This document shows, one piece after another, positions 40,601 through 43,295 of a stretch of 64,000 nt of DNA. Source of the stretch: Gallionellaceae bacterium (GTDB lineage: Bacteria > Pseudomonadota > Gammaproteobacteria > Burkholderiales > Gallionellaceae). The notes under the pieces are model-generated. The model worked only from the letters and a program-made list of their open reading frames with translations. It was not told the origin of the DNA and searched no databases. The DNA lies in contig JBAZVN010000013.1 of NCBI GenBank assembly GCA_041660815.1, positions 6,662 to 70,661 of the forward strand, given 5' to 3'. The stretch's first letter is position 1, and the number at the start of each line of letters is the position of its first letter. Position numbers and translations under genes: made by a program.

Positions 40601-43295
40601 GGCTGGAAATTTATCAATCAATACAGGTGGTTATGTCGCTTCCGGTAAAAACGTCAGCGTAACTGATGTTGCCACTCTAGCTGAACTCGGCAGTATTGCC
40701 AGCAAGAACACCGGCGGGACACTGGCTTTCTCAACTGTCAGCGAACTAAACGCAGAACATCGAGTTTTGTTTGATGCGCCGCTGGGATTAGAGGGCTGGG
40801 CTGATGGTTATTATGATGCGACTGCGCCTAATGGAACGCTTTACCAGTTTGATGCCAATCAAAACTTGGTGGGTATTCTAGGCACCAATTATTCAACTTA
40901 CGACCAAAACTCTGTGGAAACAGCAACAGTAATTTCCAACGCCGACATCGTATTCAGCGGCGGTACGGCCAAAGATAAATTTACCACCGCAGATAACAGC
41001 ATCTACATGGGGCGCTGGGCGGGCGGAACACTGACGGTTACCGATGTTGATGCCGTTGGCGTAGTTGATCCGATCATTGTTAATGCGGGTACGTCCAGCA
41101 CGCACTGGGTGTTGGCGCAAATGGTGCCGGAGGCAACGACCGGGGGAGTTAATCAGGTGCAAAATATGACGGGCACCAGCAACTACACCATGGTTGGCGC
41201 GACTCATCCAACTGACTCGGCGGGTAACGTCGGCGTGGTGACTTCGGCAAGCCTCACGGCAAATTTCAACACACAAACCGTCAGCAGCAATGCCGTGTTT
41301 ACCTTCAGCAAAACAGACACCACCAATATTAGCGCGGTGAATAGAGTGTTTGATATCGCACAGCCAGGCTTGTCAATTAACGGTTCTGCATTTTCTGATA
41401 CATGGCCGGATGTTACTACTGTCGTGACCTGTACGAGTTCCAGTGCCACTTCGGACTGTAACGGTACATGGATGGCATGGCTGGATGGTGCTTTTGCGGG
41501 TTCAGCTGGCAAAAGCGCGTTCCTGAATTATTATCTCTACAACGCGGCGGTCATTGATCCGCTTGCCGCGCCCCCCGCAGCGGGTTCACCTGCCACCATC
41601 GGTTATACCGATCTGGTGCGCAGCATTGTGGCCTTTAGCACCGATGTCGCTCCCCCCGTGATAAGCAGTCCTCTGCAAGGTAACTGGCGCTACAACCTTT
41701 TGGCTGATGCAAGCAACAGCAATGTCGGGCCGGGTAATGTTGAAATTTTTGCCAGCACCTTCAATCCGTCTGTTACACAAATTCTGACTGGCTATCTATT
41801 CGATGCCAATGAAAATTTAGTGAGAGTGGAAAATTCTGAATTTTGGCTTGGCACAATGAATTATGAAAGTCCATTAAACACCCGCGTGGTTAATCTTACC
41901 TTTTCAGGGGGCGTGGCGGCAGATAACTTCCAATCGGCAGATTTGCGCTTGGGGCGTTGGGTGGGTGGTCAGATTGAGGGAGTTGACACCATTTCATCTG
42001 GAGCTGCCTTCAAAGAGTTACTCGGCAACTCCAGCATTCATTGGGTAGTGGGTAAAGCGGTGCCGGATATGTCTCCCGGCGTGGCGATGGCTAAAGCGCT
42101 GGTCGGTACCTATAACTTTACCCCAGTGGCGCATACCACACCGACAGATATGGCAGGCAATACCGGTAAGCTCACGTCGGCTTATTTGACGGCGGATTTT
42201 AGCGCGCAACAAATAAGCTCGGGTGCGGTATTGACCTTCGACTCAACATCCGGCAGCGCACTAACCCGCGAGTTGACTTTTACCAGCCTGTTAAATATCA
42301 ATAACTTTGCAACACTCAATGAAGCCAGCCCAGCCACGGTGACATGTTCGGGTAGCGATTGCGGACTAGAAAATTGGTCTGCCTGGATGCATGGTGCCTT
42401 GACCGGTGACGCCGCCGCCAGCGCCTATATGGATTTCACCGCCTATAACACCTATGCAGTTGAGCCTCCACCCGATGTATTTCCTTCTACCGGTGGAGTG
42501 ATAACCAAACCGGGATACCTTGATATTGTGCGCAGCATCGTGGCGTTTAGCAGCGATACAGTTCCTTCAACTCGTTTTGTAATCGCGTCAAATTTTGATT
42601 CAATTGGCAATGTTCAGGTTAACGTTTCCTCTGCTGATGCCGCACGGATTGCCAGCGACACATCGGGAAATGTGACGGGCTTTGATGCGGGAATCAATAT
42701 GCCGATGAACACTTTCTCGCCCTCCAGTCGGATTGAAATCGATGCAGCAGTCGCCCATCTCGATGCAGGTAAAGATGTGGTGTCTGGAATAAGTTGGGGG
42801 CGTTGGAACGGGGGTAATCTGACAGAAACAGACAAAATCACTGCTGCAGTCACCACGCTAGCCAATACCAATAGTCACTGGATCGCAGCCCCTAAAATTG
42901 ACGGGGCGGTAACGGTGCCAATTAGCGGTACGGTGAACTACACTTTTGCCGGTGGCACGAATCCAACAGATAATTTGGGGAATGTTGGTACGTTAAATAG
43001 TGCAACGTTATCGGCTAACTTTACCGCACAAACCGTGGCGGTCGGGGTGAATGCCACGGTCGACGCGGTTAATTATGTTTCTTCCGGCGTTAATCTGCCG
43101 ATTCAGCAAATGACCAAGAGTTTTGCCAGTGGAAATGGAGGAACCTTTACCGCCACTGCAGGTGGTGCGACTGCACAGGGTTTTGTGGGCGGAGCCTTTA
43201 CCGGCAAGACCGGGGTAAATGGTGGCGCGGCAATGGTGTACGGTTTTCAGAACGGCACAACTTCAGTGAATGGTGTAGCGGCTTTCCGCGAGTAA
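37644..43295 (+). CDS. Giant exported protein (1,883 aa): FecR domain, EAKQ helical repeat, Pro/Ala linker, about eleven ~45-aa repeats and three ~290-aa modules with a TbpB-like barrel signature
   Basis: The signal peptide ends ...LPEAQA/AIAG (SPase I type, no lipobox). The FecR pattern is GYVQFVNGNVQITS...IKEGDSISTAEKSSAQIKMQDGGFVAVRPGTEMKF...ISTPAATIGIRGTDHE. The repeat regions and C-terminal signature are described under findings. Confidence 0.85.
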   Translation: MKITHKFLSSLSVVLAGLMISLPEAQAAIAGYVQFVNGNVQITSPGAAPRQLKKRESIKEGDSISTAEKSSAQIKMQDGGFVAVRPGTEMKFDKFVFTGKADGTERSFFTLAKGGFRAVTGLVGRVNKQNYKISTPAATIGIRGTDHESFVVPRGSRMGNPGAYSKVNVGETTLTTSLGTVNVKPNQMGFSSGMDVVPKIAPIDTSIFTVAAAPSKTMKEDKEEKSKQAESEKQEQQAAAKEEAKQEEKQEAKQEAKQEAKQEAKQEEKQEAKQEAKQEAKQEAKQEAKQEAKQEAKQEAKQEAKQEAKQEAKQEAKPAAPAQQQAKQEGKQDAAPAAGGAPKVAAAPAPAPAPEAPPTIRVATKVDSPTMAAVNSPPPAATPAPAPTPKVETTPVKMADQSGNSVNLTTQAITNEKTGLATTVEKVAVLVKSVSDLTNPDAINSVVNLAAQNKALPTLAECTSPLQLGCGAVLPSVPTCKASPNTAGCGVVYISDVAANLAPGGSKYATIIPGIAVNVTDAPSVSQLSAIDSANATGELSFTAVKDTKSILTANTAGYVTAGKNVTVTDNATLAELASIAVKNSGGVLSATSITDTAAGLAVSPFVKAGVTIIVVTNAAKISELTAIAGKSSSASISFSALSDTATNLANSTGNYLASAQTITVTDAANLAQLTGIISRNASATLNYTKISDTVTNLTANTSSNLLSGKTVTVTDSATLAQLSTLASANSGATLLPTVISDTAANLATSSFVAGSVNVSLTDTSVTLAQLAVVDAKTTGSLTYQSISDTVAKLTTNTGGYVVAGKNVVVTDSATLAQLNSIDSMNGAAGTLTATTISGTAAELIASPYVKAGVNLTITDTPTSIQISTLSTKIAGGSLTYASSSAISGTAAALASGNTVVPGIAVNVTDAATIAELTAIDTKNGSAAVNYSALKDTAANLAANAGAYVKDGKNVTVTDAATLAELASIDAQNVNGMLFYTALSDTAGNLSINTGGYVASGKNVSVTDVATLAELGSIASKNTGGTLAFSTVSELNAEHRVLFDAPLGLEGWADGYYDATAPNGTLYQFDANQNLVGILGTNYSTYDQNSVETATVISNADIVFSGGTAKDKFTTADNSIYMGRWAGGTLTVTDVDAVGVVDPIIVNAGTSSTHWVLAQMVPEATTGGVNQVQNMTGTSNYTMVGATHPTDSAGNVGVVTSASLTANFNTQTVSSNAVFTFSKTDTTNISAVNRVFDIAQPGLSINGSAFSDTWPDVTTVVTCTSSSATSDCNGTWMAWLDGAFAGSAGKSAFLNYYLYNAAVIDPLAAPPAAGSPATIGYTDLVRSIVAFSTDVAPPVISSPLQGNWRYNLLADASNSNVGPGNVEIFASTFNPSVTQILTGYLFDANENLVRVENSEFWLGTMNYESPLNTRVVNLTFSGGVAADNFQSADLRLGRWVGGQIEGVDTISSGAAFKELLGNSSIHWVVGKAVPDMSPGVAMAKALVGTYNFTPVAHTTPTDMAGNTGKLTSAYLTADFSAQQISSGAVLTFDSTSGSALTRELTFTSLLNINNFATLNEASPATVTCSGSDCGLENWSAWMHGALTGDAAASAYMDFTAYNTYAVEPPPDVFPSTGGVITKPGYLDIVRSIVAFSSDTVPSTRFVIASNFDSIGNVQVNVSSADAARIASDTSGNVTGFDAGINMPMNTFSPSSRIEIDAAVAHLDAGKDVVSGISWGRWNGGNLTETDKITAAVTTLANTNSHWIAAPKIDGAVTVPISGTVNYTFAGGTNPTDNLGNVGTLNSATLSANFTAQTVAVGVNATVDAVNYVSSGVNLPIQQMTKSFASGNGGTFTATAGGATAQGFVGGAFTGKTGVNGGAAMVYGFQNGTTSVNGVAAFRE
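38370..38597 (+). repeat. 19 tandem 12-bp units encoding (E-A/E-K-Q)n inside the giant gene
   Basis: Hand-counted. The early units use GAAGCCAAGCAG/CAA. Nine consecutive perfect GAAGCTAAACAA units lie at 38478..38585. The last unit is GAAGCTAAACCT. Confidence 0.9.

Follow-up and report, generated by a model that had tools for sequence, protein, structure and literature searches.

We consider it likely that the 1,883-aa protein encoded at 37644..43295 (+ strand) of the window, the 64,000-nucleotide stretch of Gallionellaceae DNA analyzed here, serves as cargo for the Slam-like outer-membrane protein of a type 11 secretion system (T11SS) encoded upstream, with the last of its three C-terminal lobes acting as the export signal and the rest as an unprocessed passenger. 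The gene is taken from the list of open reading frames, and its FecR plus module architecture is common to the relatives P0001-P0010.

The probable cognate Slam-like outer-membrane protein (499 aa, 36082..37581, + strand) is separated from the cargo start by 62 nt between its stop and the start codon, on the same strand. Pfam assigns PF04575 (SlipAM) to its aa 210-496 (E=6.3e-14, 52.6 bits at a cut-off of 22) and TPR_19/TPR_16/TPR_2 to aa 120-184. This is the plan of T11SS outer-membrane proteins, with an N-terminal TPR region and a C-terminal SlipAM/DUF560 barrel; none of the solved structures was matched beyond the TPR repeats. In loci L001-L004 the FecR-module gene directly follows a Slam homolog. 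The Slam-cargo pairing recurs in about 62 of the 65 related loci that could be evaluated (~95%), mostly from Gallionellaceae, which were drawn from 76 GTDB genomes searched with terminal modules only. The pairing extends to the single-module gammaproteobacterial versions. The TPR plus SlipAM/DUF560 gene directly upstream and its persistence in nearly all evaluable loci make, on sequence grounds, a strong case for the link of the cargo to T11SS. In Table S1 of Grossman et al. 2021 the DUF560 proteins of Gallionellales GWA2_55_18 and S. lithotrophicus ES-1 (Slit_2212) are placed in cluster 2, and the loci L009, L019 and L060, from GWA2_55_18 / S. lithotrophicus ES-1 taxa, carry the Slam-cargo pair. 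The exporter probably belongs to the uncharacterised DUF560 SSN cluster 2, and Slit_2212/2213 of S. lithotrophicus ES-1 are putative orthologs. When the surroundings of the four genes of the same orientation were scanned for promoters and terminators, fewer sites emerged than in shuffled sequence, and the scan is thus uninformative on operon structure.

The N-terminal half of the cargo begins with a predicted Sec signal peptide (aa 1-27, MKITHKF...LPEAQA/AIAGY, 37644..37724, + strand). By inspection of the translation, it has a basic n-region, a hydrophobic core and AQA/A at aa 25-28, and homologs keep the A-x-A/A(V/I)AG(H/Y)VQF junction. The leader is predicted to be of the signal-peptidase-I type with no lipobox cysteine; the first cysteine of the protein does not occur before aa 462. 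Directly behind the signal peptide is a FecR-type beta domain (aa 62-147, 37827..38084, + strand; Pfam PF04773, E=3.7e-8, 34.2 bits at a cut-off of 24). In NCBIfam, aa 31-148 weakly resemble the FecR-domain adhesin Lsa33 (E=1.3e-8, far under the Lsa33 cut-off). Then follow a charged low-complexity (EAKQ)n spacer (38364..38595, + strand), which TRF describes as a 12-nt tandem repeat (period 12, 19.3 copies, 91% matches), and about 11 copies of a ~49-aa repeat (aa ~517-1039, 39192..40760, + strand), delimited by motif positions, with the consensus VTVTDAATLAEL.SI..KN..G.L.Y..ISDTA.NL. The Pfam scan of the whole protein placed these repeats in no family, and we propose that they form a passenger or stalk region.

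The three modules occupy 40761-43292 (+ strand), the last 844 residues and the C-terminus of the reading frame; the original prediction had given 40760-43292, which corresponds to aa 1040-1883 up to the final codon before the stop. M1 (aa 1040-1343, 41672 being its last nucleotide from 40761) is an internal handle plus barrel lobe with the barrel at aa ~1175-1334 (nt ~41166-41645) and the Cys1263-Cys1272 loop within it. M2 (aa 1344-1647, 41673..42584), the second internal lobe, has its barrel at aa ~1486-1640 and contains Cys1568-Cys1573. M3 (aa 1648-1883, 42585..43292) is the terminal lobe and the proposed T11SS targeting domain, with the barrel at aa ~1760-1883 (nt ~42921-43292), ending in ...VNGVAAFRE-COOH. 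BLASTP aligns M1 with M2 at 38.6% identity over 277 aa (E=1e-46), M1 with M3 at 40% over 95 aa (E=6e-16) and M2 with M3 at 37% over 101 aa (E=5e-14). The similarity within all three pairs is far above the chance level, which bears out the original prediction of three tandem homologous modules, and the module HMM finds exactly three complete copies in the protein. M2 has first-position modules as its closest cross-protein matches and appears from sequence to be a diverged duplicate of the M1 type.

Most of the signatures proposed for the modules were recovered. GRW.GG is present in all three (aa 1123, 1437 and 1719), as are HW(V/I) (THWV, SIHWV and SHWI) and the G(T).NYT...PTD..GN.G...SA.L(T/S)A(N/D)F..Q.V block, with PTD at aa 1188, 1499 and 1773. 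The cysteine pairs expected in M1 and M2 are those at 1263/1272 and 1568/1573. The motif (F/Y)DAN(Q/E)NLV, ascribed to every module, is found as FDAN(Q/E)NLV in M1 and M2 and is FDAGINM in M3, which also departs from the claimed ~290 aa per module with only 236 aa. Of the DLVRSIVAFS(T/S)D end ascribed to M1 and M2, VRSIVAFS is shared (1325 and 1629), while M2 reads D-I-VRSIVAFSSD and not D-L-.

Modeling supports M1 and M3 as TbpB-like lobes, each made of a handle and an 8-stranded barrel, in agreement with the barrel reading first proposed. The AF2 models of M1 (pLDDT 85.1, pTM 0.86) and M3 (pLDDT 82.6, pTM 0.82) are all-beta, and each barrel half has eight long strands, with barrel closure judged from the DSSP strand count; in M3 these strands come after the handle, in module aa 116-235. 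The top Foldseek matches of M1 are LbpB 7jrd (E=1.8e-4, prob 1.00), TbpB 3hol/4o3w, the TbpB C-lobe 5kkx, the LbpB N-lobe 4u9c and the NHBA barrel 6cuj (TMt 0.64). Those of M3 are HphA 8gmm (E=1.6e-4, prob 1.00), HpuA 9mr0, TbpB, fHbp 2kdy and the NHBA barrel 5o1r (TMt 0.70, rmsd 3.1). For both modules the top ~11 matches are almost exclusively TbpB-fold proteins (HphA, HpuA, TbpB, LbpB, fHbp and the NHBA barrel). The E-values are modest (~1e-4) and the whole-module TM-scores are 0.3-0.4, with TMt of 0.6-0.7 only for barrel-only targets. M2 would share this fold by analogy with M1.

Neither Pfam nor NCBIfam assigned a barrel family to the cargo, whether it was scanned at full length or module by module. 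TbpB_B_D (PF01298) and FHBP_C (PF08794) were matched neither by the three modules at E<=10 nor by 33 family modules at E<=1, and PDB sequences gave no match in phmmer or module-profile hmmsearch, even at E<=10. Alignment of the module profile by hhalign to fHbp (a sequence identical to PDB 7ket_C) was not significant. Two relatives, P0012 and P0165, carry a Pfam TbpB_B_D (PF01298) barrel inside the same module array (E=5e-12 and 1.4e-12; 46.9 and 48.7 bits). With the canonical segment of P0012, hhalign aligned only the last 44 columns at a probability of 2.5%, which is not significant, and the module HMM aligned weakly to the barrel of P0165 (20.6 bits, high bias).

Lying directly behind a probable exporter, the cargo gene is not an isolated case but part of a large environmental family, so far unannotated, of multi-lobed cargo. 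The family comprises 1,746 clusters at 50% identity (E<=1e-3), with 1-8 modules per protein in an array that always reaches the C-terminus. Relatives are up to 3,351 aa long, more modules tend to go with longer proteins, and single-module members of ~500-640 aa come from gammaproteobacterial loci. Given this range of copy number, three lobes are typical of the family, and the triplication is not as unusual as had been thought. The premise behind that view, a single C-terminal barrel in known T11SS cargo, is contradicted by TbpB and LbpB with their two handle-barrel lobes (PMC5449769) and by the predicted cargo of Grossman et al. 2025 (PMC12282271), in which handle-barrel pairs number two to three and 'centrally located' barrels occur.

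Across the family the modules sort by position. The best cross-protein match of a terminal module is another terminal module in 77 of 77 cases, and that of an internal module is another internal one in 152 of 154; mean identity is 43.6% between terminal modules, 35.6% between internal modules and 32.6% in mixed pairs. M3 shares 52-63% identity with the closest other terminal modules. A relaxed GVAAF(H/K/Q)(R/Q)-type pattern, mostly ...GVAAF(H/K)R, forms the exact end of 48 of 76 proteins, and the window protein ends in GVAAFRE. By these comparisons, the terminal modules form a conserved lineage of their own. Such position-specific conservation favors the last lobe as the export signal, in which case the internal lobes would be passenger.

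We suggest the following route. Sec would carry the cargo over the inner membrane by means of its signal-peptidase-I type leader, with no lipid anchor. In the periplasm the cargo would be kept unfolded; the substrate of Slam is translocated in the unfolded state (PMC9090332). The TPR-DUF560 protein would then recognize it by the last handle plus 8-stranded-barrel lobe, M3; Slam cargo have this fold in common without sequence similarity, in one or two copies (PMC5449769). The passenger would comprise the two internal lobes M1 and M2, the FecR domain at the N-terminus and, between them, the (EAKQ)n spacer and the ~49-aa repeats, and we infer that the chain is indeed secreted and stays uncut. The internal lobes, if the TbpB N-lobe is a guide, are most likely ligand-binding or adhesive units, and tandem duplication would have multiplied them, with 1-8 copies in the members of the family. 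At 1,883 aa, the cargo would, to our knowledge, exceed every demonstrated T11SS substrate several-fold in size.

An unlikely alternative is that all barrels engage the T11SS protein and that their successive folding outside drives export stepwise. Such sequential signals would account for the larger number of lobes in longer proteins. The internal modules retain the barrel, and 106 of 154 have a GxAAF-like last strand, so that they could in principle be recognized too. In addition, the substrate of Slam must be unfolded, and no source of energy for Slam is known at the outer membrane (PMC9090332). However, the terminal modules stand apart as a lineage that is better conserved and has its motif at a free C-terminus, which argues for a role not common to the internal copies. 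We likewise give only a low probability to a wider proposal, in which an environmental T11SS branch (probably DUF560 cluster 2), common in iron-oxidizing Gallionellaceae, exports giant non-lipidated FecR-headed cargo of up to ~3,350 aa with up to 8 TbpB-like lobes. Beyond being passengers, the lobes would serve one after another as a translocation/folding ratchet, by which a small 14-strand-class exporter could secrete chains several-fold longer than the T11SS cargo known to us.

That the protein is a polyprotein, cut between modules during or after export into single-lobe, hemophore-like proteins, we regard as quite improbable. Every module is a complete handle plus barrel unit, the inter-module linkers of homologs contain recurring short motifs such as ...TATPPTV... 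and ...ATPYR..., and cleavage after secretion has been proposed for Pls cargo (Grossman et al. 2025, PMC12282271). However, these motifs could just belong to the opening or closing strands of neighboring domains, no protease gene is conserved beside the exporter-cargo pair, and TbpB and LbpB work uncleaved as two-lobe proteins.

It is very unlikely that the protein is no T11SS cargo and either works in the periplasm as a FecR-like regulator or leaves the cell by another route, such as the type II/type IV-pilus-like system. The FecR domain and the GspE/GspF/secretin-like genes at 49143-55280, 6-14 kb downstream, would speak for such readings. However, PF04773 is the only anti-sigma-regulator feature present and stands directly behind a cleavable leader, with no cytoplasmic anti-sigma domain or transmembrane helix; sigma-70_r2/r4 and TonB-dependent receptor domains are absent from the 20 larger neighboring ORFs scanned, which thus offer no ECF sigma factor or TonB-dependent transducer. 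The T2SS-like genes are missing from related loci, where the Slam gene is adjacent in ~95%, and we rejected them as an export route because they are not conserved together with the cargo. The flanking NHL-repeat giants were also rejected as parts of the system; they have no module and are missing from related loci.

We find it barely credible that the likeness of the modules to TbpB is superficial and that they are repeats of an unrelated beta-sandwich, lectin or jelly-roll kind, which would fit the missing sequence matches in Pfam and PDB and Foldseek E-values of only about 1e-4, but not two independent models topped almost only by TbpB-fold proteins (T11SS cargo and NHBA) at probability 0.9-1.0, the eight long strands in each barrel half, the canonical TbpB_B_D barrels interleaved in relatives' arrays or the conserved Slam synteny.

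Several features look undescribed in the T11SS literature searched: an N-terminal FecR domain combined with the lack of a lipobox, the giant size, Pfam-invisible barrels, and an exporter probably of the uncharacterised DUF560 cluster 2. Our literature search gave no paper connecting FecR with DUF560/T11SS, and in two T11SS surveys FecR is not in the main text and appears solely in a supplementary table, listed among co-occurring Pfam domains. All experimentally verified T11SS cargo belong to animal-associated cluster-1 systems, while the cargo of the other nine DUF560 clusters are essentially unknown, with barrel-bearing cargo rarely found in the marine cluster 3 (PMC12282271). The family that this locus defines is large, with at least 1,700 clusters at 50% identity, and consists of candidate cargo for an environmental branch of T11SS. 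Searches with the Pfam TbpBBD or lipoprotein-C domains miss this cargo, and a new domain model for its barrels is justified. If secretion is confirmed, an abundant, unstudied surface protein of iron-oxidizing bacteria would be revealed, and the proteins with 1-8 lobes would provide a natural series for testing which of the barrels serves as export signal. T11SS substrates would then, as far as we know, extend in size about five-fold beyond demonstrated cargo.

The Slam1-dependent TbpB and LbpB resemble the window cargo in their tandem lobes, with a beta-rich handle before an 8-stranded barrel and an internal (N-lobe) barrel, and in having a TPR-DUF560 exporter encoded alongside; both are the top Foldseek matches of M1 and among the top ones of M3. 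TbpB and LbpB are ~500-750 aa long (500-566 residues in the Foldseek target chains) and have two lobes, against three in the window cargo and 1-8 in the family. They are host-associated lipoproteins that scavenge iron together with TbpA/LbpA, whereas the window cargo has no lipobox, no partner receptor gene nearby and no Pfam TbpB_B_D match, and its lobes are preceded by ~1,000 aa made up of the FecR domain, the charged spacer and the 49-aa repeats. Hemophilin-type hemophores (Hpl, HphA, HrpC) are soluble, non-lipidated T11SS cargo of ~230-270 aa (232 residues in the HphA chain 8gmm, the best M3 match) with a single handle/clamp and 8-strand barrel. They have the same overall plan as the single-module family members, but bind haem and have no FecR domain.

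The closest published architecture is that of the Sphingomonas and Psychrobacter 'surface proteins', predicted cluster-1 cargo with two to three handle-barrel pairs behind repetitive or disordered N-terminal regions, as here (PMC12282271). Their TbpBBD is found by sequence, their repeats are Pro-Thr or PTD, and they are mostly cluster-1 lipoproteins; the window family differs in its FecR head, its arrays of as many as 8 lobes, its Pfam-invisible barrels and its exporters, which are probably of SSN cluster 2. FecR surface proteins, such as the Leptospira adhesin Lsa33, and FecR anti-sigma factors share the PF04773 beta domain with the window cargo, which differs from the anti-sigma factors in having no anti-sigma domain, transmembrane segment or nearby ECF sigma/TonB-transducer partner. 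We know of no TbpB-like barrel in Lsa33. The Pls-like cargo of Haemophilus parahaemolyticus, for which T11SS-dependent secretion of Pls has been shown by experiment, is smaller (525 aa), mostly lipidated and single-barreled with no FecR domain, but like the window cargo it has a charged, repeat-rich helical region before the handle and C-terminal barrel, with EEARKA there and EAKQ here (PMC12282271).

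The C-terminal 844 residues (aa 1040-1883; 40760-43292, plus strand) of the 1,883-aa proposed cargo protein (37644..43295, plus strand) are three modules in tandem, which, cut at the repeat boundaries, are M1 (aa 1040-1343), M2 (aa 1344-1647) and the terminal M3 (aa 1648-1883). Homology is clear in all pairwise alignments (M1 vs M2, 38.6% identity over 277 aa, E=1e-46; M1 vs M3, E=6e-16; M2 vs M3, E=5e-14), which confirms the three tandem modules of the original prediction. The motifs expected in each module, GRW.GG, HW(V/I) and the block G.NYT...PTD..GN.G..SA.L.A(N/D)F..Q.V, are found in all three. 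FDAN(Q/E)NLV is present in M1 and M2, while M3 reads FDAGINM, and the proposed length of ~290 aa does not hold for M3, which has 236 aa. The Cys pair and VRSIVAFS ascribed to M1 and M2 are both there; the ending DLVRSIVAFS(T/S)D, proposed for the two modules, fails for M2, which ends D-I-VRSIVAFSSD. The Cys pair is a family-wide feature with the consensus V.C.G..C and is gone from M3 of the window. In comparisons across proteins M1 is nearest to first-position modules (51%), a type of which M2 is a diverged copy.

A module HMM iterated on ten homologs gives 37 module copies, 2-5 per protein, always extending to the C-terminus, and 33 of them served as the alignment input for AlphaFold2. The models of M1 (pLDDT 85.1, pTM 0.86) and M3 (pLDDT 82.6, pTM 0.82) are all-beta; they open with a sheet region at the N-terminus, and from the G.NYT motif onward eight long strands follow. 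In Foldseek against the PDB the best match of M3 is hemophilin HphA (8gmm, E=1.6e-4, prob 1.00), with HpuA, several TbpB entries and fHbp also among the top ones; the C-terminal barrel of NHBA is matched with TMt 0.59-0.70 and rmsd 3.1 Å (5o1r). The top matches of M1 are LbpB 7jrd (1.8e-4) and TbpB 3hol with its mutants, followed by the TbpB C-lobe 5kkx, the LbpB N-lobe 4u9c and the NHBA barrel (TMt 0.64). TM-scores over whole modules are as low as 0.3-0.4, which is to be expected with a different handle and another orientation of the two sub-domains to each other. Hence, each module is predicted to fold as a TbpB-type lobe of a handle and an 8-strand barrel, in agreement with the barrels claimed originally; for M2 the same fold as M1 is likely from their 38.6% identity. 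A lectin or jelly-roll fold is very improbable given these models and the TbpB-type top matches of M1 and M3; unrelated folds rank lower than these matches in every case, with low probabilities.

At the sequence level, no Pfam, NCBIfam or PDB match covers the modules, and they fail both the TbpB_B_D and the FHBP_C models of Pfam. In hhalign the module profile is not significant against fHbp, the sequence of which was checked against PDB 7ket_C beforehand, or against a canonical TbpB_B_D segment. Such failure is not unusual, since Slam substrates ‘share no sequence similarity’ yet have the handle and barrel domain in common (Hooda et al., PMC5449769). Two related proteins partially bridge the modules to the TbpB_B_D family: P0012 (2,808 aa, with a FecR head) and P0165 have Pfam-certified TbpB_B_D barrels at aa 2390-2526 (46.9 bits) and aa 43-180 (48.7 bits), respectively. 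Both barrels are penultimate in the module array, with the conserved terminal lobe next, so that barrels visible to Pfam and barrels missed by it stand in one and the same array. The module HMM can be aligned to the P0165 barrel in collinear fashion, but weakly (20.6 bits) and with strong composition bias.

Upstream of the modules, the cargo starts with a predicted leader of the signal-peptidase-I type, read from the translation, with the cleavage between ...LPEAQA and AIAGY and without a lipobox cysteine. It is followed by a FecR domain (PF04773, aa 62-147, E=3.7e-8), an (EAKQ)n spacer, a Pro/Ala-rich linker, a four-Cys stretch, and about 11 copies of a ~49-aa repeat (~39192-40760, aa 517-1039; VTVTDAATLAEL.SI..KN..G.L.Y..ISDTA.NL), for which there is no Pfam family. 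The spacer (38364-38595), encoded by 19.3 copies of the 12-nt tandem repeat AAACAAGAAGCT with 91% matches, is likely a charged helix, recalls the EEARKA helix of Pls-like T11SS cargo, and might be a site of length variation in the gene. The four cysteines (~39027-39110, aa 462-489) lie in ‘C...P.TAGC..VLP’-like mini-repeats, of which relatives have many more tandem copies (P0012, for example at aa ~500-600 and ~1390-1440, and P0005); this recurrence suggests a disulfide-stapled linker element.

The probable exporter gene (36082..37581, plus strand) ends 62 nt upstream of the cargo gene on the same strand. Its product combines TPR repeats with a SlipAM/DUF560 barrel (PF04575, E=6.3e-14, 52.6 bits, cut-off 22), which is the architecture of Slam, or type 11 secretion (T11SS), outer-membrane proteins. 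The exporter-cargo pair also occurs around the homologs P0005 and P0006. Among 80 related loci, tblastn finds a Slam homolog in 67 and the FecR head in 71. Where FecR-gene starts have enough upstream sequence (65), the Slam gene ends at most 600 nt upstream in 55 by an automatic rule, and is adjacent in ~62 with seven that the rule overlooked. Gallionellales GWA2_55_18 and S. lithotrophicus ES-1 have DUF560 proteins that fall in SSN cluster 2, no member of which is characterized (Grossman et al. 2021, Table S1). Loci from these taxa have the exporter-cargo pair, and from this co-occurrence we infer that the window exporter probably belongs to the same cluster. The pair is bordered on its own strand by two NHL-repeat giants, of 926 aa (33215-35995, also with fn3) and 1,775 aa (43359-48686), only 86 nt and 63 nt away. 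Neither contains the barrel module, and neither is conserved alongside the pair in related loci. Another NHL-repeat protein (861 aa) is encoded at 5078-7666 on the minus strand.

A scan of GTDB, one genome per species, with the terminal-module alignment gives 76 loci, the majority from Gallionellaceae (Sideroxydans, Gallionella, Ferrigenium) and the rest from Burkholderiales (Rhodoferax, Comamonadaceae) and some Gammaproteobacteria. Proteins at these loci have one (16, part of them from truncated contigs), two (12), three (22), four (20), five (4), six (2) or seven (1) modules. When 1.84 billion representatives are searched with the profile, 1,746 clusters match at E<=1e-3, and the largest number of modules is eight, in a 3,351-aa protein. 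Since three tops the distribution, three lobes are the commonest state of the family, and the triplication, originally regarded as unusual, is no anomaly. Single-module proteins (~500-640 aa, FecR and one lobe) adjoin Slam genes in gammaproteobacterial MAGs. The premise that known T11SS cargo has a single C-terminal barrel is also wrong, because multi-lobe cargo has been described before, with two lobes in each of TbpB and LbpB (PMC5449769). Thus, the original interpretation is partly supported, as TbpB-like lobes of T11SS cargo, and not in taking their multiplicity as unusual.

Across proteins, every terminal module (77/77) has another terminal module as its best match, and 152/154 internal modules match another internal one best; mean identity is 43.6% for terminal-terminal, 35.6% for internal-internal and 32.6% for mixed pairs. 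A relaxed GVAAF(H/K/Q)(R/Q)-type pattern, mostly ...GVAAF(H/K)R, forms the exact C-terminal end of 48/76 proteins, and in 25 more this strand is followed by a few extra residues. The window cargo ends ...VNGVAAFRE, with a putative likeness to the ...IGLAAKQ end of fHbp.

The separate conserved lineage of the terminal modules supports, from sequence comparison, the suggestion that the terminal lobe targets the cargo and the rest is passenger. We suggest that the cargo would first be exported by Sec into the periplasm, the TPR-DUF560 protein would then recognize the terminal lobe, and the unfolded chain would be translocated next, with the cargo ending on the surface or released. Slam1 is known to move TbpB in unfolded form only, with the use of the chaperone Skp (PMC9090332). 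The passenger would comprise the internal lobes, repeats, spacer and FecR head; TbpB is read likewise, its N-lobe being the effector and its C-lobe barrel the putative targeting domain (Grossman et al., PMC12282271). By analogy, the cargo may act in adhesion or ligand capture.

Beside a terminal lobe of its own lineage, it is unlikely that every barrel is a sequential signal or a folding ratchet. Cleavage of the cargo into single lobes is improbable. A non-T11SS route is very improbable: a type II secretion/type IV pilus-like set lies downstream (49143-57704), with GspF-like (49143-50351), GspE-like ATPase with MshEN domain (50650-52341, minus), secretin with STN domain (53250-55280, minus) and, next to it, four small ORFs (55277-57704, minus), but these genes are not conserved with the exporter-cargo pair.

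The literature searched appears to contain no description of the FecR-headed, non-lipidated, giant cargo architecture, of as many as eight copies, of barrels that escape the Pfam models used for cargo finding, or of the association with environmental Betaproteobacteria. In some Gallionellaceae loci, L016 (7421-10681, 10719-12392) and L017, a second, shorter FecR and single-lobe gene ending ...YKR stands beside the multi-lobe gene; it is possibly a paralogous cargo using one exporter in common. The annotation ‘Neurofilament protein’ is typical of E/K-rich repeats. It is given to D5CRX3, the neighbor of Slit_1471 in the protein list of S. lithotrophicus ES-1 proteomics (PMC12016527), in which the FecR-domain proteins Slit_1471 and Slit_2946 are detected.
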